A program made the position numbers and the translations under genes. Positions 3,143 through 41,527 of a stretch of DNA of 64,000 nucleotides are shown piece by piece. This stretch comes from a virus. A model generated the notes under the pieces. The model was not told the DNA's origin and did no database searches. It saw nothing but the letters and a program-made list of their open reading frames with translations. The stretch spans positions 1 through 64,000 of IMG/VR virus record IMGVR_UViG_3300044539_000111; one strand, 5' to 3'. Each line of letters begins with the position of its first letter. Positions within the stretch are counted from its first letter, which is position 1.

Positions 3143-3647
3143 CGTAACTTAGTTTTTGTCCGCCTCTGGCTCTTGATGATTGCTCTTCTTCCAAATCTTT
3201 AGCAACACCTTTAAATGATTTACGAATAGCATCAAAGTTTTTTGCTGCACTCACAATGGCTGTAATGTTTCCATCCCTGCCGTCTGTAATGGTTTGAGTG
3301 TTCATATAAAACGCCAACTTTTCTAACATGTTAGAAATACCATTGTATGCGCGTATTGTCGGAGTTTCATACATGTCTTTGCATCTATCCAGTGCCATAC
3401 GAATAAGTCTGTCTTCTGGATCAAAGTTAGGGTTTAAATCTGAAAGAATTTCATCTTGAACTTCATCTTGAGGTCTGTTAAAATAAGGATTCTCAGAACT
3501 CCTGCAACTCATGTAAAATAAGTAAGCATAAATTTCCAAATGATTATCCGGATACTCTTCCATTATCCTTCTCAAGAAAGGAATAGTTTGACAGTGTTCT
3601 GTTGGAACTACTTTGCCATTTATTGCATCAAATAGTTTAATGGCCAT
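3135..3647 (-). CDS. Conserved crAss-like protein upstream of terL (possible terminase small subunit)
   Basis: 170 aa, helical, overlaps terL start; function inferred from position only. Confidence 0.5.
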   Translation of the reverse strand: MAIKLFDAINGKVVPTEHCQTIPFLRRIMEEYPDNHLEIYAYLFYMSCRSSENPYFNRPQDEVQDEILSDLNPNFDPEDRLIRMALDRCKDMYETPTIRAYNGISNMLEKLAFYMNTQTITDGRDGNITAIVSAAKNFDAIRKSFKGVAKDLEEEQSSRARGGQKLSYDD

Positions 3648-4476
3648 GGTTTAATATTTTTTCTCTGTGTTCTTGAACATACTTGAACATGGCAATCACC
3701 TCTTTTTTCATGTAAGGTAATTCATACGGTGTTACATTTTTTACTAGCGGATCACCCATAGCATCTGTAGCAACAACAGGATAGCCATTCTTATCTAAGT
3801 GATCAATCTCAAATTCAATATGATCTAGTTGTATTTTACCAGGCTTCAAATTAAAGTTGTGCTTTAGCATGATGTACATGTATGTACTCAACTGTAAAGC
3901 GTATTCATTATAGTTGCACTCATCCAAATGAGAAAGTGGTCCAAGTAATTTTTTACTTTTACCTAGTCTGTCTGTAAATCCTTGAAGTTTAATTTCCTTG
4001 TTTGTTTTGTAGTCATAAACATCAATCAATTCATCTACAACTTCAATTCTATCTGCTTGTCCACAAACACCTGCTGATTTTAAATACACCAAATGCTCAG
4101 GATAAATACCATCGGCTAATTGTTGATCTGGTGCAAGTTTAACCAATCCATCCATCAAAGGATTTATGATTGTCAACTCTTTTCCTTTTCTTGTAATTGT
4201 GTTGCAAGCAAGAACATCTTTTTCTCTTTGATCATGATACCATGAACCTAAATTAACAGCTCTTTTGTTTTCAGATTCCCAAAGTTTAATAATTTCTTCA
4301 GGAGTCATTTTGTTATACTTGGGATTCTTTCCTTTAGAACAAGCATCAGCCATTTTGATTGTATCAAACGGCTCTTTAAAGTAATGAATCAACCTTGTCA
4401 CACTTATCCAATCAATTGGATCTCTTTCATCAATACTGATGTATTTGTGTTCATCGGCATAAAATTTTACACTCAT
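3637..4476 (-). CDS. PD-(D/E)XK (RecB/Cas4-like) nuclease
   Basis: ISVT, GSWYH, CGQADRI, DVYDYKTNK and YALQLSTY motifs. Confidence 0.85.
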   Translation of the reverse strand: MSVKFYADEHKYISIDERDPIDWISVTRLIHYFKEPFDTIKMADACSKGKNPKYNKMTPEEIIKLWESENKRAVNLGSWYHDQREKDVLACNTITRKGKELTIINPLMDGLVKLAPDQQLADGIYPEHLVYLKSAGVCGQADRIEVVDELIDVYDYKTNKEIKLQGFTDRLGKSKKLLGPLSHLDECNYNEYALQLSTYMYIMLKHNFNLKPGKIQLDHIEFEIDHLDKNGYPVVATDAMGDPLVKNVTPYELPYMKKEVIAMFKYVQEHREKILNHGH

Positions 4477-4790
4477 AGTTTTGCCTTTTGGTTTAAAAAT
4501 ATGATACCTGTGTTTCTTACTTCTTCATCTGCACTTTTAAGCAAAAGCTTCAACTTAAAGAAATCTTGAGATGAAATTATTTCACTTGCTAATAAATCTG
4601 CAGCAAGAACTATTGTTTCTAAATACTCTTTTTCTTCTGCAGAAATTGATACTGTTTTGTATGGATCATAAGGTATAGTACTAGCTTGACTTAATTGATT
4701 CCACAATCCCTCTTTAAGAGCAGTTCTAGAATCATTACCCATAATAGCATCTTGCATTTTGCTATTTAAATCTTTATTATTCTGAATCAT
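4473..4790 (-). CDS. Hypothetical protein with C-terminal LxSxDxE module
   Basis: ISSQDFFKLKLLLKSADEEVRNTGIIFL; overlapping start/stop with both neighbours. Confidence 0.7.
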   Translation of the reverse strand: MIQNNKDLNSKMQDAIMGNDSRTALKEGLWNQLSQASTIPYDPYKTVSISAEEKEYLETIVLAADLLASEIISSQDFFKLKLLLKSADEEVRNTGIIFLNQKAKL

Positions 4791-5094
4791 CTCCTAGTTT
4801 TTTTTGTAGTAAATAATTTTCTTCATGTGACAACACTGCATCCCATTTACCTTCTGGACAATCAGAACCAAGTGCTCTTAGTTTTAATCCCATACTGCAT
4901 CCGCAAGATCCACAACATGGGCCGGTTCCAGGAACTAAACATTTATCTCCTTCTTTGTCTACTATTGGACACTGTTCACAGATAGCCCATCTTTCTTTGG
5001 CAATTTCTTCAACATGTTCATTTTTGAAAATGTTATTCTTGATCCCCTCCAGGATTTGCCCTTTTGCTTTCCAAATTTTTATTACGCTTTTCAT
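4777..5094 (-). CDS. Cys-rich putative zinc-binding protein
   Basis: RWAICEQC...C...CCGSCGC...CPEGKW; likely start MKSVIK at 5094. Confidence 0.65.
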   Translation of the reverse strand: MKSVIKIWKAKGQILEGIKNNIFKNEHVEEIAKERWAICEQCPIVDKEGDKCLVPGTGPCCGSCGCSMGLKLRALGSDCPEGKWDAVLSHEENYLLQKKLGDDSE

Positions 5095-5428
5095 ACATTT
5101 CTTTGTAGTACTCATTACACATTTCTAATCCTTTGACTTTGCTATCCAGCAGTGTTTTAGAAAGATTGAATTTAATCACTTTTTTAAAGTCCTCTTGAGA
5201 ATTACTCTCCAATAATTTTTGCATCCTTTCAATATTCTTTTCAAGCTTTCTCCTGCTTAATCTAAGAGTACCTAATCCATGCAAAAAGATTGTAGCATTC
5301 TCTAAGTTTTCAATCTTTCTAGTTACTATAGAATAGTAAAACTCAACAACATCCCTTACCATTTCCTCTGGTAAGTTTAATTCTTGAGCTGTCTTTTTAA
5401 TTAGCTCTTTGCCCTTGGTCGGTTTCAA
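5033..5428 (-). CDS. HU/IHF-like DNA-binding protein
   Basis: KELIKKTAQELNL...VRDVVEFYY...IFLHGLGTL resembles the HU fold; IHF-like genes are typical of crAss-like phages. Confidence 0.7.
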   Translation of the reverse strand: MKPTKGKELIKKTAQELNLPEEMVRDVVEFYYSIVTRKIENLENATIFLHGLGTLRLSRRKLEKNIERMQKLLESNSQEDFKKVIKFNLSKTLLDSKVKGLEMCNEYYKEMYEKRNKNLESKRANPGGDQE

Positions 5429-12244: not shown

Positions 12245-12853
12245 TTACTTGATTTTACAAACTTCTTCTAAACGATTCAACACATCTTGCGCACTGTGGC
12301 CATCATAATGATGTTTTACAAATGGTTCTTCCGGGCACTGGAATAAATCCCAATCCTCCAACTGATAGTGGTTACTTACTTGTCCTCCTGGCAATACAGC
12401 CATGACAATAAACCATCCGCCACCAAAACATGGTAATCCATCACTATGACATTTGGATTTATGTACATCGTACAATCCTTCTTTAGTCCAAGCATTAAAT
12501 GCCGCAGCATTGTACATCTTACGGAAAGCATACAACTCATTAAAAGTATGGTAGCCGTCAGAGATTTCTCCTTTGTCAACTTTTCCTTCTTCATTGTAAG
12601 ACTTATGGAAAATGTCAGGCTTGCAAGGATAGAACTCACCATGAATACCTTTGATAATCATATCACCAATTGAAGCAAAAATTGGTCCTTCCAAAGTTTC
12701 AATTTTTACTTTAGGATCCATGCTTTTACCATCAAAGTCAATTTCTATTTTCTCACCCATGAAATCAGAAAGATTATCCATTGTTGCCAATGTAGCATCT
12801 ACAAATTCAACAGCTTCAATTGTGATTGGTTTCTTTGTGAATCTACTTATCAT
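12245..12853 (-). CDS. Two-domain phage protein
   Basis: N-terminal KKPITIEAV...TLEG...GEFYPCKPDIF domain fused to ISDGYHTFNELY...YDGH domain. Confidence 0.7.
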   Translation of the reverse strand: MISRFTKKPITIEAVEFVDATLATMDNLSDFMGEKIEIDFDGKSMDPKVKIETLEGPIFASIGDMIIKGIHGEFYPCKPDIFHKSYNEEGKVDKGEISDGYHTFNELYAFRKMYNAAAFNAWTKEGLYDVHKSKCHSDGLPCFGGGWFIVMAVLPGGQVSNHYQLEDWDLFQCPEEPFVKHHYDGHSAQDVLNRLEEVCKIK

Positions 12854-13533: not shown

Positions 13534-13950
13534 TTACTTTAGTTTATAAAATTTACCCAATATATTACCATTTAAAAACTCATCACTCTCAAGTACCCCC
13601 AATGCAAATTGGAACTTGCACTCATAGTATGACAATTCTTGTTTTCCAAAACAGATGTGTAAAATCTCTCTGCGGATAGTTACTCCATCTTTGTGCGCTT
13701 GCTTTAAGACCTCATTGCTACTGAAATAGTTTTTGTAGGTTGTTTTTCTCACACGCTTGTAAGTCTTCAACCTTTTATCTGTAGGAATATCTTTCTTAGC
13801 TAGTTTGGTTTTGACATCAGCATAGAAGTTCTTCTTGCCAATGTACCTAACTGGTTTCCCATCAATAATTGCCATCATCTCATAGATAAAACCAACTGCT
13901 CCTTCTGGAATCATTTCTTCAGTAAATTCTTTTCCGCCTTCTATCCACAT
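13534..13950 (-). CDS. GIY-YIG family nuclease
   Basis: GFIYEM...RYIGKK, YFSSN, REILHIC, LSYYE. Confidence 0.75.
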   Translation of the reverse strand: MWIEGGKEFTEEMIPEGAVGFIYEMMAIIDGKPVRYIGKKNFYADVKTKLAKKDIPTDKRLKTYKRVRKTTYKNYFSSNEVLKQAHKDGVTIRREILHICFGKQELSYYECKFQFALGVLESDEFLNGNILGKFYKLK

Positions 13951-14191: not shown

Positions 14192-14530
14192 TCATCTTAA
14201 TTCATTTATTCGTCTATTCAAAAGCAAGTTAACCAAGTGGCGCGACTCAGGATCTCTTGAATCTAACATTTTTGAAAATCTCTCATACTCCGTTTTAGTT
14301 ATCCATTCATCATCATGTGCTTGATGCAATTTTATAGCTACTTCATCTCCCGTTGATCTTGCCATTTTAAGAAACAACTCATTTGGCAAAGGCTTTCTTA
14401 TTTCAAAATCAGATGCGGTGCTTGTCATTTTTTCTAACTCTCCGTTTCTATAAAGCCATTGTTCATTCATGTCGCTCAGACTAAATAAAATATCTCCTCC
14501 CTCAAATGATGTTATTGGTAATCCTTTCAT
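14192..14530 (-). CDS. Hypothetical protein with C-terminal LxSxDxE module
   Basis: WITKTEYERFSKMLDSRDPESRHLVNLLL. Confidence 0.7.
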   Translation of the reverse strand: MKGLPITSFEGGDILFSLSDMNEQWLYRNGELEKMTSTASDFEIRKPLPNELFLKMARSTGDEVAIKLHQAHDDEWITKTEYERFSKMLDSRDPESRHLVNLLLNRRINELR

Positions 14531-15477: not shown

Positions 15478-15786
15478 TCATACACACTTTTTTCTAGCTT
15501 TGGCCAAAAGCTGTTGTATCATGTCTAATCCCATTTGCATACTCTCCTGATCCGTACTGCAGACTAACCTAAACAACGTACTAGCTTTGTTGGTATCAAT
15601 TACCTTCCTAACTTTTAAAAACTTGATCTTAGTTACCATCTCAGATATGAGTGTAGATTCTCCAAAAGTTATATCTCTGTTAACTTTTACACCATACTTC
15701 TTCTCAAAATGCTTTATTATCTGCACATGTTTAGCCATTAGAGGGATCTCCATGGCATCATTCCACCACATATTTGAATAGTCCAT
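15478..15786 (-). CDS. Hypothetical protein with C-terminal LxSxDxE module
   Basis: Likely start MDYSNMWW; VIDTNKASTLFRLVCSTDQESMQMGLDMI. Confidence 0.6.
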   Translation of the reverse strand: MDYSNMWWNDAMEIPLMAKHVQIIKHFEKKYGVKVNRDITFGESTLISEMVTKIKFLKVRKVIDTNKASTLFRLVCSTDQESMQMGLDMIQQLLAKARKKCV

Positions 15787-33773: not shown

Positions 33774-34556
33774 ATGTCTATTTCAACAAAAGGAGTTAAG
33801 AAAAATCACATCTCCAAAGAACTAAAGCCAGGTAATGTTGTGGCAAAAATCAACAACTTGTCTATTGAGCAAGTAAAAACACCAAAGGATCCTAAGAATC
33901 CTGAATACAAAATCTTTATTGAATTAGAAAGCCGCCCAATCGGTGGTGACTTTGTAGGATTTGATAAAGTGTTTGGTGATGCAAGTAAAGGTCAGCACTT
34001 AGGTCAAACAAAAAAGATTCAGTTTTCTAACTGGCCAATCAGAACAAGTGAAGGTATTTCTAAGAAAACAGGAAAGGCTTACAAGATTTTGGCATCAGCT
34101 AAAATTCTTGAGTTTGTTCAAAAACTGTTGACTATAGTTGGAGGTGACGCATGGTTGGAAGCCAACGATGGCAAGTTTGATACATGGGAGCAATTGCTTG
34201 CCGGTGTAGTTCGTAGCGGATTACTTAAAGACAAGTATTTCTCTTGGTGTATTGGTGCTACAGAAGGACAAAATGCCGCAGGATACACTGTATATTACAT
34301 GTGGCTTCCTGAAAAGAAAGACGCTGCTGAACCGTTTGCACTTGAAGGAGGTCTTGTTACCAAGTTTGATGCAAACATTCACATCACAAAGTCTAAGTCT
34401 GTAACAGAAAATGCAGCTCTTAATGACGGAGTTGATGATGATGATTCAGTTGCAAGAGAGCAAGAAGATGACGATTTTGCAAATGCACCTACAGACAGTC
34501 CGTTTGACAACGATGAGTTAGATGACAGCGAGTTGTTTGACATGGATGAAGATTAA
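33774..34556 (+). CDS. Putative single-stranded DNA-binding protein
   Basis: Follows Sak4-like gene; long acidic C-terminal tail. Confidence 0.6.
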   Translation: MSISTKGVKKNHISKELKPGNVVAKINNLSIEQVKTPKDPKNPEYKIFIELESRPIGGDFVGFDKVFGDASKGQHLGQTKKIQFSNWPIRTSEGISKKTGKAYKILASAKILEFVQKLLTIVGGDAWLEANDGKFDTWEQLLAGVVRSGLLKDKYFSWCIGATEGQNAAGYTVYYMWLPEKKDAAEPFALEGGLVTKFDANIHITKSKSVTENAALNDGVDDDDSVAREQEDDDFANAPTDSPFDNDELDDSELFDMDED

Positions 34557-34614: not shown

Positions 34615-35613
34615 ATGATACACACAGTTTATTACACTAACAAAAACTTTCCTATACCTAGTAATAGGATCATGGAAAGAATTTTAAATCTTGAAGAAGC
34701 ATTAGAAGGACAGTCAGTTAAAATCAAATCTATTTTTAACAAGGCAGACAATGATCCTTCAATGATTTTGTTTTTCTCAGATGATGAACAAATATATCGC
34801 TTTAAAGATTTTTCTTCAGGGAACTATGGTGATGCTGTTGATATAGTATTAGAACTCTACAACTTATCAGATAGGCAGAATGGCTATAGACAAATCCTAG
34901 AGCTTTTTAAGAATGACACAGAAATCCCTAAATACATTAACACTGCCTCCAAAGAAATCAGAGAAGTCAACAAGTACACAATCCGTAAATGGACTAATGC
35001 TGATGCTGCATTCTGGAAACAATTTGGAATAGGTGGTTCTTTCTTAAAGAACTATAACATAAAGCCACTAGGGGAATATACCATTACCATTACTAAAGAA
35101 GACGGAGTAGAAGAAATGAACTTTGCTCAGAACATGTGCTATGGTTATTTCAATAATGCAGGAGAGCTATGCAAAATCTATCAGCCAACACGGAAGATAG
35201 CAAAGTTCCTAAAGCTTAGAGAATATACACAAGGTGAAGAACAACTCACATACAAGGCACGTTGTCTAATCATTGCATCATCTCTCAAAGACATCGGTGC
35301 ATTCAAAGCACTCAAGTTCAATCAGATTGAAATGGTAGCTCCCGACAGCGAGAATGTTACTATCACTCAAGCACAGATTGACAAGTACCGCCAAGAATAT
35401 GAATTTGTCTTCACACTATTTGACAATGACATAGCAGGCATGAAAGCAATGAAACACTACAAAGATTTGTATAACATCTCTTACATCTATTTCAATGTAG
35501 AAAAAGACATTGCAGAATGTGTCAAGCAACATGGTGTTGCAAGCACAAAAGTATTTTTAATTCCAATCTTAAAAAATGCAATCGCAGGAGAAAAAAATCA
35601 AAAGACTTCTTGA
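34615..35613 (+). CDS. DNA primase (TOPRIM)
   Basis: FKDFSSG..GD, SSLKD, APDSE, LFDNDIAG, KDIAE. Confidence 0.85.
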   Translation: MIHTVYYTNKNFPIPSNRIMERILNLEEALEGQSVKIKSIFNKADNDPSMILFFSDDEQIYRFKDFSSGNYGDAVDIVLELYNLSDRQNGYRQILELFKNDTEIPKYINTASKEIREVNKYTIRKWTNADAAFWKQFGIGGSFLKNYNIKPLGEYTITITKEDGVEEMNFAQNMCYGYFNNAGELCKIYQPTRKIAKFLKLREYTQGEEQLTYKARCLIIASSLKDIGAFKALKFNQIEMVAPDSENVTITQAQIDKYRQEYEFVFTLFDNDIAGMKAMKHYKDLYNISYIYFNVEKDIAECVKQHGVASTKVFLIPILKNAIAGEKNQKTS

Positions 35614-35998
35614 GTCCAAAGATGTAGAAAACCATAAGCTTGGTCAACTAGCACTATTATCTGTGTTAGACAAAGACAATGTTTTATATTGGTATTTGAC
35701 TTTAGAGCCAATCAAAGGTTCAATTAAAGCAGATGAAGATTTGCATATAAAAATGACAGAGCTTTTAGAATGGCCATCCTATATTCCAGCAATGGAATGT
35801 TTAGCTAAAATGGTTACTTATATTCAAGCTACTTGTCCTTCACAATCAAGCATAGAAAAATTCTTTGTTTATTACAATGAATATCTTTACAGTTTAATGT
35901 CAAGTACATGGACTTCAGAAACAAGAAAATTAATTAAATCACAAATACCACAGTTAAATGTCAGCAAACCTCCAACAAAATCTCACGAAGATTTGTAA
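35576..35998 (+). CDS. Hypothetical protein with N-terminal LxSxDxE module
   Basis: KKIKRLLESKDVENHKLGQLAL. Confidence 0.65.
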   Translation: MQSQEKKIKRLLESKDVENHKLGQLALLSVLDKDNVLYWYLTLEPIKGSIKADEDLHIKMTELLEWPSYIPAMECLAKMVTYIQATCPSQSSIEKFFVYYNEYLYSLMSSTWTSETRKLIKSQIPQLNVSKPPTKSHEDL

Positions 35999-37199
35999 AG
36001 ATTTGATGTTAGAACAGCCATTTTATGGCCTGCTTCTACTAAATCTAAACAAAGAATGGACAGACAAAGTACCAACAGCCGGTGTTGGACTAGAAGGAAT
36101 CAACTACAAGTTGTATATTAATCCGGAATTTTGGCAAAGTTTATCTGAAGAACACAAGAAAGGTTTGCTTCAGCATGAATTGATGCACATTGCATTCTTT
36201 CATATTACAGAATACAAACATCTAAAAAATCATGAGCTTGCGAACATGGCTCAAGATATTGAGATCAATCAAAAGATTGATCCCGGTTATTTACCGCCAG
36301 ATGGTTGCACACTTGAGAAATTTATTGATAAAGGATATGATTTACTTCCAGAAGAAGGTACTAACATTTATTATGAAAAATTAAACCGTGAAAGTGATGG
36401 TCCAGGTCCCGGATCTGGTAAAGGTAACGGGCAAGGACAAGGGCAAAGTTTACTTGATGCCATCAAAGATGCAGTAGCAAATGGTTCAATGCAAGTTAAC
36501 GGTCAAGGTTCAAGTAATATGCGCGTCCCAGATCACCAATGGGATGACTTCGATGATCTATCAGAAACTCAACAAAAACTTGTTGACAAACAACTTGAAG
36601 TGATGTTAGACGAAGTTGTTGAACAGGTTCAAAAAATGCAGGGTACTATTCCTAGAGAAGTCTTACAAAAGCTAGAGGCTTTAAAAGTAATTGAGCCACC
36701 AAAGTTTAATTGGAAAGCTTACTTGAGAAGATACATTGGGAACAGTTCTAAGAACAGCATGCGCAAAACCAAAAGAAAACAAAGCAAGCGTTTTGAATTA
36801 GACTTTGGTATTAAAGTGCAAGAGTTTTCAACTATCTTAATTGCAATTGACAGTTCACAATCAGTATCTGATGATGAAATTAAAGAGTTCATGCATGAAA
36901 TTCACCACATGTACAAGTGTGGACATGATTTTACATTGGTTTTTGCAGATACACAAATGCAAGATCCGGTAAAATATAGACCAAATATGCCGTTAATCAT
37001 TAAGAAAAGGGGAGGTACTGATTTCAATCCTGTTGTAGATTATTACATACAACATAGAAAGAAATACACAACGCTCATTTATCTTACAGATGGAGAATGT
37101 CCTGCTCCAGATGCGCCAGTTAAAAACATGTTGTGGGTACTATCTACAAAATGTCAGGACACAGATCACTTACCAGGAAAAACAATCAAGTTAAATTAA
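35958..37199 (+). CDS. Metallopeptidase-vWA (DUF2201-like) protein
   Basis: HELMH zincin motif; IDSSQSVS MIDAS, GGTDF, YLTDG. Confidence 0.88.
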   Translation: MSANLQQNLTKICKDLMLEQPFYGLLLLNLNKEWTDKVPTAGVGLEGINYKLYINPEFWQSLSEEHKKGLLQHELMHIAFFHITEYKHLKNHELANMAQDIEINQKIDPGYLPPDGCTLEKFIDKGYDLLPEEGTNIYYEKLNRESDGPGPGSGKGNGQGQGQSLLDAIKDAVANGSMQVNGQGSSNMRVPDHQWDDFDDLSETQQKLVDKQLEVMLDEVVEQVQKMQGTIPREVLQKLEALKVIEPPKFNWKAYLRRYIGNSSKNSMRKTKRKQSKRFELDFGIKVQEFSTILIAIDSSQSVSDDEIKEFMHEIHHMYKCGHDFTLVFADTQMQDPVKYRPNMPLIIKKRGGTDFNPVVDYYIQHRKKYTTLIYLTDGECPAPDAPVKNMLWVLSTKCQDTDHLPGKTIKLN

Positions 37200-37216
37200 A
37201 AGTTAAATTAAGAGTT

Positions 37217-38413
37217 ATGAACAAAGTACAGTTAAACAGCAAAGAGTTAAAAGAAACATTGACTCACTTGATTACAAACAATAGAGCAATCCAAGAAGAT
37301 GGATTGAAACCAGTTGCTATCTCAATTTGTGGTGCAGCAGGATTAGGAAAGACATCCGTAGTGGAACAATTAGCTGAAGAGCTAAATATAAAACATGTAG
37401 AAATTATTAACTTGGCTCAGCTAGATGAGCTAGGTGACTTAGTTGGTATTCCAATTAAGGAATATCAGATGGTTGTTAAGCAAGGTGACAATCAAGTAGG
37501 TAAATGGGTTGATGAAAAAGTCATGGATTCCTTTGCTGCACAGGGATGGAAAGCCAATGGACAAAGCCGAATGAGTTATGCTAAGCCAGCTTGGATTGCA
37601 GGTAAAGGAGAAAACGGTGTACTTATCCTAGATGATTACACTAGAGCTGCGCCACGCTTCATGCAAGCAGTTATGGAAATCATTGACAAGCAACGCTACA
37701 TTTCTTGGGCGTTACCAAAAGGATGGACCATTCTTCTTACAGAAAATCCAGATGACGGTACTTACAATGTAACAGACATTGATGCTGCTGCAAAGTCAAG
37801 ATACATTACATTTGATATGAGATGGGAGCCAGAAGTTTGGGCTGAATGGGCTGAGAAATCAGGTATTGACCAACGTGCAATTAACTTTACTTTGTTACAT
37901 GGTAAAGAGATTATCAAAGATGACAACCCTGTAGTAAATCCAAGAAGCTTAGTGAAGTTCTATAATTCTTTAAGAACAATCAAAGACTTTGACAAACAGT
38001 TGATGCTTATTCAGAACATTGGTGAAGGTGCTGTAGGTCCAGAAATTACAACAATGTTTACATCATTCATCCATAATAAATTGGATAAAATGATTTCACC
38101 TGCTGAAATTTTGGATACAACTGTTAGCTTTGATACCATTCAGGGAAAAATCAAAGAGTTGGTCAAAGAAGGTAAAGATTACAGAGCTGATCTAGGTTAT
38201 GTATTGACTACCAGATTGATTAATCACATGGTTCACACTGTAAAAGACAAAGAAATTACTCCAGCTTTTATTGAGCGAGTAAAAGATTTAGTTGTTGGAA
38301 AAGTATTAGGTTCTGATTTGAAGTTTGTATTGGCTAAAAAAGTAGTCAACTCAAGCAACAAATACAATGTTCTTATGCTAGAAGATGAGTTTGTAAATGT
38401 AATCTTAGAATAA
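37217..38413 (+). CDS. MoxR-like AAA+ ATPase
   Basis: GAAGLGKT, LILDDYTRA, TENP, NPRS. Confidence 0.85.
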   Translation: MNKVQLNSKELKETLTHLITNNRAIQEDGLKPVAISICGAAGLGKTSVVEQLAEELNIKHVEIINLAQLDELGDLVGIPIKEYQMVVKQGDNQVGKWVDEKVMDSFAAQGWKANGQSRMSYAKPAWIAGKGENGVLILDDYTRAAPRFMQAVMEIIDKQRYISWALPKGWTILLTENPDDGTYNVTDIDAAAKSRYITFDMRWEPEVWAEWAEKSGIDQRAINFTLLHGKEIIKDDNPVVNPRSLVKFYNSLRTIKDFDKQLMLIQNIGEGAVGPEITTMFTSFIHNKLDKMISPAEILDTTVSFDTIQGKIKELVKEGKDYRADLGYVLTTRLINHMVHTVKDKEITPAFIERVKDLVVGKVLGSDLKFVLAKKVVNSSNKYNVLMLEDEFVNVILE

Positions 38414-39384
38414 TGATTTCATCAATAAATGTTGTCACACTACCGCGGACTTGTTTCGCGGTAGTTCCTGACGATTATGACTGTCATGAATCAGATCTTA
38501 AAATTAATAAGCTGATTCATGATTCTCAAAAGTATGCGGATTTAAATGGAAACATGATTGATGTACCTGTTGAAAGTATTGTTACAGACAAAACTAAAAC
38601 ATTGTATGTTAATCTAGCTGTAAGAAAGTATCTAATGACAGATGCTAAATTACTATCTGGACAAGTTCAAGCTTTAAGCTGCGACTATCTTATTTTTACT
38701 GCTCAAGATACTGAAGACTATTGTTTACAAAAAGTAAAAGATGTAATTGGATTAGCTTTTTGGGATGAGTATGCTGTAGCTACAAAAGAAGCATTACAAA
38801 ATGCACTAGACTTTGATTTAATTTCTGAAGATGACTATGTTCAAATGACATATAAGCATCCTAATAGAACAAGTTGGAAAGAATCAAAGACTCAATGGAA
38901 TGTAGGTTCAAATCACAATGTAAATTTTATTTTACAAGCAACCGGAATGATGATCCCTAGTAATAAAAAAGTTATAGAGCTGCAAGAAGTTCTAAACTAT
39001 TCTAAAAATCGCGGAATCACACAAGAAGAATCCAATAAAATAAAAATGCTTTTGCAAGCAAAAGACTCAGAAAAAGTTGCACTGACTTTATTAAACACAA
39101 TCAATCCAAATAATTCATTTGTTGAACTGATGTGTTTGATTAATCACATGGATGATAACATCCGTAGAAACAATCCAAATGTTCCAGTACTACCTCTGTT
39201 AAAAGGTGCATACAATGTTGATACTGGAATAAAAAGAAAATCTGATAGAATTGTAAAAGAATATGAAAAGAAGTTTGGTTATGCTTCTAATGAAGTTCTA
39301 GAAAGAATTGCAGATAACTATTATCACCCAACAGTTGAAACAAGTTCGGTGTTTGATTTCAAATTAAAAATAAAAAGAAAATGA
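38413..39384 (+). CDS. Hypothetical MoxR-associated protein with internal LxSxDxE-like module
   Basis: GITQEESNKIKMLLQAKDSEKVALTLL. Confidence 0.7.
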   Translation: MISSINVVTLPRTCFAVVPDDYDCHESDLKINKLIHDSQKYADLNGNMIDVPVESIVTDKTKTLYVNLAVRKYLMTDAKLLSGQVQALSCDYLIFTAQDTEDYCLQKVKDVIGLAFWDEYAVATKEALQNALDFDLISEDDYVQMTYKHPNRTSWKESKTQWNVGSNHNVNFILQATGMMIPSNKKVIELQEVLNYSKNRGITQEESNKIKMLLQAKDSEKVALTLLNTINPNNSFVELMCLINHMDDNIRRNNPNVPVLPLLKGAYNVDTGIKRKSDRIVKEYEKKFGYASNEVLERIADNYYHPTVETSSVFDFKLKIKRK

Positions 39385-40406
39385 AACAAGAGTTAAATGA
39401 AGTACAGCAAATGAATTACGATGCATTCTTTGCTAATGTTGAGAACTTAATGCTCAGCCCAAGTGCATTAAAGCTAATGCTTGAATCACCTAAAACATAT
39501 TTTAAACACTATGTATTAGGAGAAAAAGATGTGAAAACAGGAAAGCATTTTGATGAAGGATCATTGGTCCACTGTATGGTTCTTGAACCAGATGAACTCA
39601 AAGAAAAGTTTGTAAACATGGGAATATCTGTTCCTACAGATAGTACTCGTCTTTGCATAGAACATCTATTATCTTTAGGAAGAGATGCATCAGAATTAGA
39701 GGAGTATCATGAAGAGATCATTGCTTATTTAAAAGATGTAAATCTTCATCAGTCATTAGTAGATGACAAGAAAGCTCCATTCAAAACTGGTGATGAAAAG
39801 CGTTTAGAAAAAGTGATTACTGAAAACTCAATAGAGTACTTTAGAATCATGGTGGAAGGACGCGAGAAAACAATTGTAGATGTTGCATCATGGGATAAAT
39901 GCTATGCCAAAGCAGAAGCAATTCTTGCATGTGAAAAAGCAAACTTCTTGCTTAAACCAGTGAATGAAAATGATGAAGTCAGATATGAAATTGAGTTATC
40001 TCACAGACCTGAAGAGCTTCAGTATGGTGTAAAAGGTATCATGGATGTAATCAAAGTTGATCGCCAAAGCAAAACTGTTTATATCAGTGATGTTAAAACG
40101 CACGGTGGAAAACTAAAAGACTTTGTTACATCTGCAGAAAAGTATGAGTACTGGTTGCAACCAATCATCTACAAAATTCTTGCTGAAAGTTTACTCAGAG
40201 GCCGCGCATTTGATTACAAAATCATTTTTCATTTTATTGTGGTTGACCAAAACAATGATGTGTATTGCTTTCCAGTAGAAGATTCATCAATGGAAAAGTA
40301 TTTTACTGAATTGTTTCACATGGTAAACAAGAAAATCAATTATCACATTACAAGCAAAGACTTTACATTACCTTATGAATTTGCAAACAATTTAATATCT
40401 TTGTAA
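39381..40406 (+). CDS. PD-(D/E)XK exonuclease (RecE/ExoVIII-like)
   Basis: LSPSAL, GSLVHC, KGIMDVI, SDVKT, YWLQPIIY. Confidence 0.8.
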   Translation: MKQELNEVQQMNYDAFFANVENLMLSPSALKLMLESPKTYFKHYVLGEKDVKTGKHFDEGSLVHCMVLEPDELKEKFVNMGISVPTDSTRLCIEHLLSLGRDASELEEYHEEIIAYLKDVNLHQSLVDDKKAPFKTGDEKRLEKVITENSIEYFRIMVEGREKTIVDVASWDKCYAKAEAILACEKANFLLKPVNENDEVRYEIELSHRPEELQYGVKGIMDVIKVDRQSKTVYISDVKTHGGKLKDFVTSAEKYEYWLQPIIYKILAESLLRGRAFDYKIIFHFIVVDQNNDVYCFPVEDSSMEKYFTELFHMVNKKINYHITSKDFTLPYEFANNLISL

Positions 40407-40415
40407 GAAAATACT

Positions 40416-40820
40416 ATGTCAGAAAACACCAACCAAAAAAGCATGATGTTAGTTGTGCAAGATCACAGAGGCATGCCAACGTTTAGCATGATCCGAACAG
40501 CAGAAACTTGTCCATTTGTGGAGTGCATTTATGTACCAGATCAAAAACAGTTAGCAATTATTTCTACCATTCAGAAGGATACATTTCATTTGTTTCCTAA
40601 ACTAGATGACAATGGAGATACTGCAATTGCTAAAGGCAGAAAAGTTGTAGGTAAAAATTACAAAGAAGAAAGAAAAGCAATCAAAACTTTTTATGAGTAC
40701 ACACTTGTAAATGAAGATGACATTGTTGCTTTTGTAGAAAAGTTTGCAGTAAATGCAGATACTTTTCCTTTCCGCAATGTAATGAATCCTGAAGCGGCAA
40801 AAGCTAAGGCTAAAAAGTAA
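40416..40820 (+). CDS. Hypothetical protein
   Basis: 134 aa; TATCTTTG upstream, terminator downstream. Confidence 0.7.
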   Translation: MSENTNQKSMMLVVQDHRGMPTFSMIRTAETCPFVECIYVPDQKQLAIISTIQKDTFHLFPKLDDNGDTAIAKGRKVVGKNYKEERKAIKTFYEYTLVNEDDIVAFVEKFAVNADTFPFRNVMNPEAAKAKAKK

Positions 40821-40833
40821 GCACCAAAATCTT

Positions 40834-40876
40834 AATAAAAGTGCGAGATTCTCTAAGTTTCTCGCACTTTTTATTT
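40834..40876. terminator. Bidirectional terminator
   Basis: AAAAGTGCGAGA/TCTCGCACTTTT. Confidence 0.8.
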
Positions 40877-40886
40877 ATTCAAGTTT

Positions 40887-41093
40887 ATGAGCACAATTGA
40901 TTTAGGTAAAGTTTTTGGCTCAGGAAAACCAAGAGATCCGCACATTATTAGACTAAACTTTGCCAAAAGAAACGGCTTAGTTGATGATGAACAATATGAA
41001 AGGATTCTTCAGTACTTGAAGTCAGATGAAGAAGATGTACAGAATTTAGGTGCAACAACACTAAAAGGAATAATTCAAAAATCATCAATGTAA
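40887..41093 (+). CDS. 68-aa protein, mostly the LxSxDxE module
   Basis: LVDDEQYERILQYLKSDEEDVQNLGATTL. Confidence 0.7.
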   Translation: MSTIDLGKVFGSGKPRDPHIIRLNFAKRNGLVDDEQYERILQYLKSDEEDVQNLGATTLKGIIQKSSM

Positions 41094-41527
41094 TGGAACT
41101 AATCCAAACTACAAACTTACATTTCCATGATTATAAATCAGACAAAGTTTACTATGCTGAACTTTGTAAAATTCCAAAAAGTAATCTTTGGAATATAAAT
41201 TTTGCTTATGGAAGAAGAGGTAACACGCTAGTTCATGGAACTAAAAATGAACAACCTCTTCCTCTTAATAAAGCATCAAGCATTTACATGAAGTTAGTCA
41301 ATTCTAAATTGTCTAAAGGGTATGGATACACAGATAATAATTGGGTATCTAATAATAGAACTAGAGCTTATTCTTCATTTGCCGCAGAAATGGTTAATGA
41401 AAAATATATGACTGAAGAAGAATACACAACAGTCACACGGATGTTATATTCCACAGATCCGGAAACAGTAAAATTAGCAGAAGTATTAATTGAAACTAAA
41501 GAAAAACAAAGATGGGAGCAGATTTAA
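41093..41527 (+). CDS. WGR-domain protein with C-terminal LxSxDxE module
   Basis: SDKVYY...YGRRG...KLSKGY, then MTEEEYTTVTRMLYSTDPETVKLAEVLI. Confidence 0.75.
   Translation: MELIQTTNLHFHDYKSDKVYYAELCKIPKSNLWNINFAYGRRGNTLVHGTKNEQPLPLNKASSIYMKLVNSKLSKGYGYTDNNWVSNNRTRAYSSFAAEMVNEKYMTEEEYTTVTRMLYSTDPETVKLAEVLIETKEKQRWEQI

Follow-up and report, generated by a model that had tools for sequence, protein, structure and literature searches.

The locus and its genes

This study concerns a short helical module that recurs in seven proteins of an uncultured virus, IMG/VR record IMGVR_UViG_3300044539_000111, and its relationship to a gene pair encoding a zinc-metallopeptidase-vWA fusion and a MoxR-class ATPase. 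The window, meaning the whole stretch of DNA analysed, is the first 64 kb of this 114.2-kb record (CheckV completeness 96%); we take the source phage, and the phages carrying the related loci discussed below, to be uncultured crAss-like phages. The genome has a G+C content of ~34% and its genes are coded on two divergent arms. The pair lies in a DNA-replication block, which begins with a DnaB-type helicase, an AAA_24 ATPase and a primase, continues with a protein we call A (open reading frame (ORF) 35576), the peptidase-vWA protein, the ATPase and a protein we call B (ORF 38413), and is completed by a PD-(D/E)XK nuclease, a 134-aa protein, a 68-aa protein, a WGR protein, a 183-aa protein, a DNA polymerase and an SF1 helicase. 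Four genes make up the core of the locus:

35576..35998 (+): protein A, 140 aa, all-helical; module (first hairpin) at 35576-35668
35958..37199 (+): zinc-metallopeptidase-vWA fusion; DUF2201_N and DUF2201 (Pfam E 8e-19 and 8e-12)
37217..38413 (+): MoxR-class (AAA_5) ATPase, 398 aa from the ATG at 37217; the longest ORF runs from a GTG at 37133
38413..39384 (+): protein B, 323 aa; module at 39010-39114

These genes are tightly packed: the gene for A overlaps the 5' start of the peptidase-vWA gene, and that for B begins at the ATPase stop codon. The catalytic and ligand-binding residues of the pair are strictly kept. In 30 relatives of the peptidase-vWA protein the HExxH motif (H73, E74, H77) and the metal ion-dependent adhesion site (MIDAS; D298/S300/S302/T354/D378) are invariant, as are the Walker A (GxxGxGK) and Walker B (DD) residues of the ATPase. 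The latter matches Pfam AAA_5 at 25.7 bits (cut-off 22), with AAA_3 at 20.2 bits falling under its cut-off of 27, and the best solved match to its family profile is Midasin (E 1.7e-13). PHROG 1314, which the peptidase-vWA protein matches at 4e-60, carries the label "HNH endonuclease," as does gp036 of Erwinia phage S6; because the Pfam content is DUF2201_N plus DUF2201, this label looks like a propagated misannotation.

Proteins A and B accompany the pair across a phage clade

Using the ATPase as query we gathered 54 related loci; the primase as query led to six, all of them close. The vWA and ATPase genes are adjacent in all 54 loci covering both, and the gene order is primase, A where present, peptidase-vWA, ATPase, B, (a protein of ~164 aa), and nuclease. 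B stands directly after the ATPase in every locus that covers this position. A, with its N-terminal module, lies upstream of the vWA gene in about half of the loci and is absent from the other half. An earlier note on this DNA, made from the letters alone, had remarked that two carriers of the module flank the pair; across the 54 loci they prove to be conserved neighbors, B throughout and A in about half. Judged from gene order, the peptidase-vWA/ATPase pair in the DNA-replication block of this clade has B as its constant third partner and, frequently, A as a fourth.

Some lineages show variations on this arrangement. Two tandem B paralogs (~376 and 388 aa), or an additional A-like protein (~165 aa) encoded between the ATPase and B genes, are found in lineages among loci L016, L017, L020, L029, L048, L051, L036-L038 and L040-L043. 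In L044-L046 and L050-L055 the ATPase gene is split after approximately residue 73 or residue 140 (at both sites in L051), with inserts that encode GIY-YIG/NUMOD1 homing endonucleases of 249-263 aa, and the gene calls for L046, L047, L051 and L055 likewise break up the vWA gene; the split genes are probably cases of mobile introns in a conserved gene.

Seven proteins share the module

The earlier note had picked out seven ORFs by eye as sharing a segment with the pattern LxSxDxE, and had placed them on both strands. All seven quoted peptide segments were found in the named ORFs at the places given; four of these ORFs are plus-strand and three minus-strand, and all lie in non-structural regions of the genome. 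With leave-one-out hidden Markov models (HMMs), six of the seven held-out carriers ranked first among the non-training genes of the genome. ORFs 14192, 35576, 38413 and 41093 scored 9-18 bits, above all of 2760 shuffled proteins (maximum ~6 bits), while ORFs 4473 and 40887 were marginal (~5 bits) and ORF 15478 failed (1.9 bits).

Because the seven had been chosen by eye, an independent test profile was built without any sequence from the window, using only module copies from relatives with an ATPase identity of <=65%. Searched against the 138 genes of the whole 114-kb genome, this profile returned as its top seven exactly the seven carriers, at 17.9, 17.3, 14.9, 10.1, 9.8, 7.2 and 5.5 bits, against a maximum of 5.6 for shuffled proteins; it found the motif in no other of these genes, and in no structural gene. 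Given these scores relative to the shuffled maximum, six carriers are sound and the claim of a real shared module holds for them, whereas ORF 15478, borderline at 5.5, is a doubtful member. The carriers also find one another directly: jackhmmer seeded with any single one recruits the rest via the module alone, and HMMER recruits across families at E<1e-3.

Conservation in relatives points the same way for both core proteins. In the 54 related loci the motif keeps a constant position in orthologs of A (at the N-terminus) and of B (approximately residues 210-250), down to ~40% ATPase identity, and within the module D19 is conserved in at least 90% and E21 in ~70% of copies. Closer relatives (L002-L010) retain the C-terminal module of the WGR protein, and L002, L003 and L008 retain that of the 68-aa protein. 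Against 1.84 billion representative proteins the module profile matched 525 clusters at E<=1e-3. The best 150 of these 525 clusters comprise 102 that are B-like, 17 that are A-like and 8 tiny proteins, which leaves 23 outside these classes of length and position; many of the 23 look like fragments of B. None of ten matches scanned has a Pfam family. The module marks a family of at least 525 clusters in metagenomes that is undescribed and has no Pfam or PHROG model.

An armadillo-type hairpin

The fold of the module could be recognized from solved structures. When its profile was compared with all Protein Data Bank (PDB) sequences, the strong matches were designed consensus armadillo (ARM)-repeat proteins only, 4rv1 (E 9e-25) and 4hxt (E 1e-15), and each repeat of these proteins aligns to module columns 11-33. 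The ARM consensus, as in these designed proteins, reads LVxLLxSxDxEVQxxAxxALxNI. Since the match runs repeat by repeat, the module, of 30-35 residues, is predicted to be an ARM/HEAT-type hairpin made of ARM helix H2, a tight S-x-D turn and helix H3, in keeping with the earlier suggestion of a likeness to one HEAT hairpin. It extends beyond the ARM consensus by a preceding h-I/V-T/D-x-x-E-Y stretch. Single repeats of the designed proteins score only 8-10 bits with the module profile, and Pfam Arm/HEAT models matched none of the whole carrier proteins at E<=1 and none of 43 module segments at E<=10.

This identification bears on the LxSxDxE pattern, which the earlier note had put forward as marking a candidate tag/adaptor system; the module does not represent a novel class of tag. 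By the same alignment its S, D and E would be the ordinary turn and cap residues of an ARM/HEAT repeat, so their conservation alone does not indicate a ligand. As the default reading, S-x-D-x-E as a special recognition signature was rejected: given the match to 4rv1 and 4hxt, it is a generic ARM/HEAT turn.

In A and B the hairpin is part of something larger. The AlphaFold2 model of A (predicted local distance difference test score (pLDDT) 85.8) has seven helices; that of B (pLDDT 83.7; predicted template modeling score 0.82) has an alpha/beta domain at residues 1-200 followed by a seven-helix ARM-like domain at residues 204-302 (~39022-39330). Comparison of the two families with hhalign gave a probability of 96% (E 3e-9), aligning A residues 2-103 with B residues 204-306. 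A is thus the helical C-terminal domain of B (~100 aa) in free-standing form, and the module is the first hairpin of that domain; in both proteins a small alpha-solenoid of ~100 residues has the module as its first repeat. The assertion that the rest of each carrier is unrelated accordingly needs dividing: the five other carriers share nothing outside the masked module in pairwise BLAST comparisons, whereas A and B share this whole domain.

VIA-align, run all-against-PDB with the model of B, matched residues 202-277 mostly to TOG, ARM, HEAT and adaptin proteins in the top 50 rows, with a Z of only 4.4-5.9; Foldseek against the PDB found no significant match for the models of A or B. There is no tandem ARM/HEAT array in any carrier: A and the C-terminal domain of B have seven helices each, and in each of the other five a single hairpin was detectable, with 6-12 residues after it. 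A, B and the small carriers match nothing in Pfam, PHROGs or PADLOC except for the WGR domain. The family profiles of B and of the vWA protein retrieved nothing useful from PDB sequences, the ESM Atlas held no usable match for B, and neither tblastn of a B protein against 50,697 GenBank phage records nor blastn of the locus found a match.

Carriers with a single hairpin

Five carriers have the first hairpin only:

40887..41093 (+): 68-aa protein; C-terminal module 40974-41075; 7.2 bits with the independent profile
41093..41527 (+): WGR-domain protein, 144 aa; C-terminal module 41402-41506; 17.3 bits
14192..14530 (-): 112-aa protein; C-terminal module 14204-14308; 17.9 bits, the top match
4473..4790 (-): 105-aa protein; C-terminal module 4479-4583; 10.1 bits
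15478..15876 (-): 132-aa ORF; weak C-terminal module 15502-15606; 5.5 bits

Two of them lie 1.5-2 kb downstream, and three are more than 20 kb from the vWA/ATPase pair. The description of the module as portable, with copies on unrelated small proteins beside the pair and elsewhere in the genome, was borne out. In all five the hairpin lies within ~45 residues of the C-terminus and ends 6-12 residues before the stop. Relatives G001 and G003 encode four more C-terminal carriers (65, 69, 98 and 304 aa), and in 9/9 carriers other than A and B from this genome, G001 and G003 the module ends 3-12 residues before the stop codon.

The individual proteins differ in how well the hairpin is kept. Across seven orthologs of ORF 4473 the half that holds the module hardly varies and is the best conserved part of the family, while the N-terminus drifts. 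The module of ORF 14192 is closest to those of WGR proteins from related genomes, including a shared preceding W, which suggests that the hairpin may have moved between unrelated proteins. By eye, ORF 14192 also has a second, degenerate look-alike upstream of its module (approximately residues 50-70, L-x-x-M-x-x-S-x-x-D-E-V) and may hold two tandem hairpins. The doubtful ORF 15478 keeps its module in the one close relative found; its first ~30 residues form an odd hydrophobic stretch rich in Tyr and Pro, and its true start is probably an internal Met (MDYSNMWW...), as in the relative L078.

The WGR protein is the carrier with a recognizable partner domain. WGR is a domain of the type that binds DNA ends or nicks. 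In ORF 41093 it matches Pfam WGR at 22.1 bits (cut-off 22) and PADLOC WGR_XIII at E 1.7e-24, and its 52 longer relatives are mostly fusions of WGR with an ATP-dependent DNA ligase (~350 aa) carrying PF05406. No ATP-dependent DNA ligase (PF01068) is encoded in this genome.

Carrier numbers vary sharply between relatives. Whole-record scans (at E<=1 for the first five records and E<=0.1 for the others; the sample is small, and a few placements with the weakest scores are doubtful) gave seven carriers in G005, which is near-identical to this genome, six in G003, four in G002, three each in G004 and G009, and two in G001, all of which have A. G006, G007, G008 and G010, partial records without A, have one carrier each, namely B. 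From these counts, the extra carriers are lineage-specific expansions, and in this small sample they accompany A in every case; of the seven carriers studied here, five are specific to this lineage.

Other genes in the window

Upstream of the core genes, 33774-34556 (+) encodes a 260-aa protein without a Pfam match, whose strongly acidic D/E-rich tail, ending ...FDMDED, resembles by eye the C-terminal tails of single-strand DNA-binding proteins. Four features of note lie in the left arm, at 13534-13950 (-), 12245-12853 (-), 5033-5428 (-) and 3637-4476 (-). One gene away from carrier 14192 this arm encodes a SegE-type GIY-YIG endonuclease (E 2.5e-18), and adjoining carrier 4473 a second, weak PD-(D/E)XK nuclease; a WDGH-domain protein (E 5e-35) and a DNA-binding protein resembling HU/IHF are encoded there as well.

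What the hairpin may do

The layout of this locus matches one that has already been interpreted in bacteria. Effector-associated domains (EADs) have been proposed to couple effectors to bacterial MoxR-vWA ternary systems by like-with-like contacts (Kaur, Burroughs, Iyer, Aravind, 2020; PMC7159879), and the arrangement that prompted this proposal, one copy of a small, helical, non-enzymatic domain on a core component and terminal copies on other proteins, is the one seen here. We tentatively suggest, as a reading that is possible and that we prefer without holding it to be probable, that the hairpin acts in the same way, as an adaptor coupling proteins through like-with-like contacts. The hairpin would then be a non-enzymatic coupling handle, the first hairpin alone having been copied, in this lineage, onto the C-termini of at least four other small proteins, the WGR protein included. 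These C-terminal copies would pack on the matching solenoid of A or B, or on one another, and such packing would tether the WGR protein and the other small proteins to an assembly of B/A, vWA protein and ATPase in the replication module.

Several observations weigh against this coupling role. Four of the five hairpin-only carriers (all except the WGR protein) have no recognizable domain, unlike typical EAD-effector fusions. The genomes without A hold B as their single carrier, and nothing is present there to be coupled. In the N4-like Erwinia phage S6, the adjoining gp035 (ATPase) and gp036 (DUF2201_N plus DUF2201) match the family profiles of the locus at 3.7e-12 and 2.7e-22 and have the same Pfam domains, and no A, B or module occurs within 3.5 kb of them; a MoxR locus of a Vibrio phage likewise lacks the module, so the vWA/ATPase machine does not need the hairpin in general. 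The conserved residues, moreover, are those that any ARM/HEAT hairpin needs in order to fold, and their conservation alone is no sign of a shared partner. Finally, module pairs of A and B from the same genome gave 30.8 against 17.8 for pairs across genomes (p ~5e-4), a nominally significant difference that is confounded by phylogeny, since it traces back to two deep clades, and that does not count as independent evidence.

Closest to the earlier note, which inferred a docking module that recruits diverse clients to the MoxR-vWA machine or lets carriers co-assemble, is the reading of the hairpin as a tag read by the machine itself: the MIDAS of the vWA domain would bind the acidic turn of the hairpin, and the ATPase would remodel the carrier or the zinc-peptidase cleave it. 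The invariance of both the MIDAS (DxSxS..T..D) and HExxH motifs in the 30 relatives fits such a reader, as do the conservation of D19 and E21 in the module and the position of carriers on either side of the pair. Midasin, the nearest solved relative of the ATPase family, has a MIDAS domain that grips an acidic residue of its substrates, and binding of ligand peptides by MIDAS sites is established (PMC7159879). We nevertheless consider this reading rather unlikely, in view of three points: S-x-D-x-E is the standard ARM/HEAT turn, whose conservation needs no ligand role; a MIDAS usually takes an extended peptide or an exposed loop and not a helix cap; and the homologous pair in the N4-like phage works without the module.

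The carriers could instead all bind one host or phage protein outside the locus, such as a replication hub or a component of host defense, their proximity to the MoxR-vWA pair reflecting no more than shared membership of the replication module. Every carrier is in a non-structural region, the neighbors are a DnaB-type helicase, a primase, a nuclease, a DNA polymerase and an SF1 helicase, the WGR carrier resembles accessory proteins of type XIII retrons and WGR-ligases, and three carriers are more than 20 kb from the pair, all of which would suit an external target. B, however, follows the ATPase in every locus covering that position and keeps its module even where there are no other carriers, which ties the module family to the pair above any other gene and makes a common external target improbable in our view.

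A further alternative, that the hairpins have no shared function and are structural ends of small helical proteins, alike through ARM/HEAT convergence or through meaningless duplication of gene fragments, draws on the commonness of similar hairpins in helical proteins, on the noise-level score of ORF 15478, and on the sub-threshold Pfam Arm/HEAT results together with the 8-10 bits reached by single designed repeats. It is hard to reconcile with a similarity that exceeds the ARM consensus (the h-I/V-T/D-x-x-E-Y stretch, and the W common to ORF 14192 and the WGR proteins), with C-terminal placement in nine of nine carriers other than A and B, with the strength of purifying selection acting on that half of ORF 4473 which holds the module, and with cross-family recruitment by HMMER at E<1e-3, and we judge it decidedly unlikely.

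Very improbable is a full degradation or remodeling tag, in which the MIDAS captures the acidic turn, the MoxR-class ATPase pulls and the fused zinc-peptidase cuts, with A and B as adaptors or competitive regulators; were it true, the phage would have a tag-directed unfoldase-protease of its own, timing or removing small proteins of replication and host takeover whose set changes, and the unexplained but conserved gene 24/25 pair of N4 would gain a function.

The ATPase/peptidase-vWA pair, which is core but unexplained in N4-like phages, is present also in a large clade of phages that we take to be uncultured crAss-like phages, and B, A and the portable hairpin, including the copy on a WGR sensor of DNA ends, are the first concrete handles on what the machine acts on.

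Comparison with known systems

The fold class, the ATPase/vWA pair and the coupling logic all have known precedents. Three things are undescribed in the literature searched: the two families B and A, the constancy with which they accompany the pair throughout a large clade of uncultured phages, and a single ARM-type hairpin serving as a portable piece at the C-terminus.

Like ARM/HEAT repeats, the phage module has their sequence pattern and helix-turn-helix geometry. Superposition of the modeled C-terminal domain of B on ARM, HEAT and TOG proteins reached a Z of only 4.4-5.9. Unlike them, it occurs as a single hairpin, or as ~2-3 repeats in A and B, in place of a long tandem array; it goes undetected by Pfam Arm/HEAT, has the extra conserved N-terminal I/V-T/D-x-x-E-Y, and sits mostly at the extreme C-terminus. 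Midasin (Rea1/Mdn1) combines an AAA ring with an intact MIDAS that engages small substrate domains and, as the nearest solved relative of the phage ATPase, is the model for gripping of a tag; it differs in being a single giant eukaryotic polypeptide with no fused peptidase, whose substrates are ubiquitin-like domains and not ARM hairpins.

In N4-like phages, genes 24 and 25 (vWFA) are among 14 core genes with no known function (PMC4193335). The comparison with this pair (Schitoviridae) was made via S6 and not N4 itself: S6 gp035 and gp036 are homologous to the ATPase and vWA protein of the locus, with the gene order inverted (here the vWA gene precedes the ATPase gene) and A, B and the module lacking within 3.5 kb.

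Accessory proteins of type XIII retrons join WGR to HEAT/ARM repeats (Mestre et al., 2020; PMC7736814). ORF 41093 shares with them an N-terminal WGR-like domain followed by HEAT/ARM-type helices, as its match to WGR_XIII (1.7e-24) reflects. It has 144 aa and one hairpin as against ~370-970 aa and many repeats, there is no retron here, and its WGR domain finds its nearest relatives among WGR-DNA-ligase fusions. The combination of WGR with ARM/HEAT is thus a known arrangement, in miniature in ORF 41093.

The EADs differ from the phage module in belonging to bacterial conflict islands and not to a phage replication module; phage B is not a VMAP, and the phage partners are mostly tiny and without a recognizable effector domain. 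What the two have in common is that the module is small, helical and non-enzymatic, with a copy on a component adjacent to MoxR-vWA and terminal copies on other proteins, a pattern that is similar in the related genome G003; the likeness is one of layout, and like-with-like binding is a proposal for EADs and phage module alike. If the coupling role suggested here is correct, the wiring proposed for bacterial MoxR-vWA conflict systems, with the same small domain on core and client, would extend to viruses.

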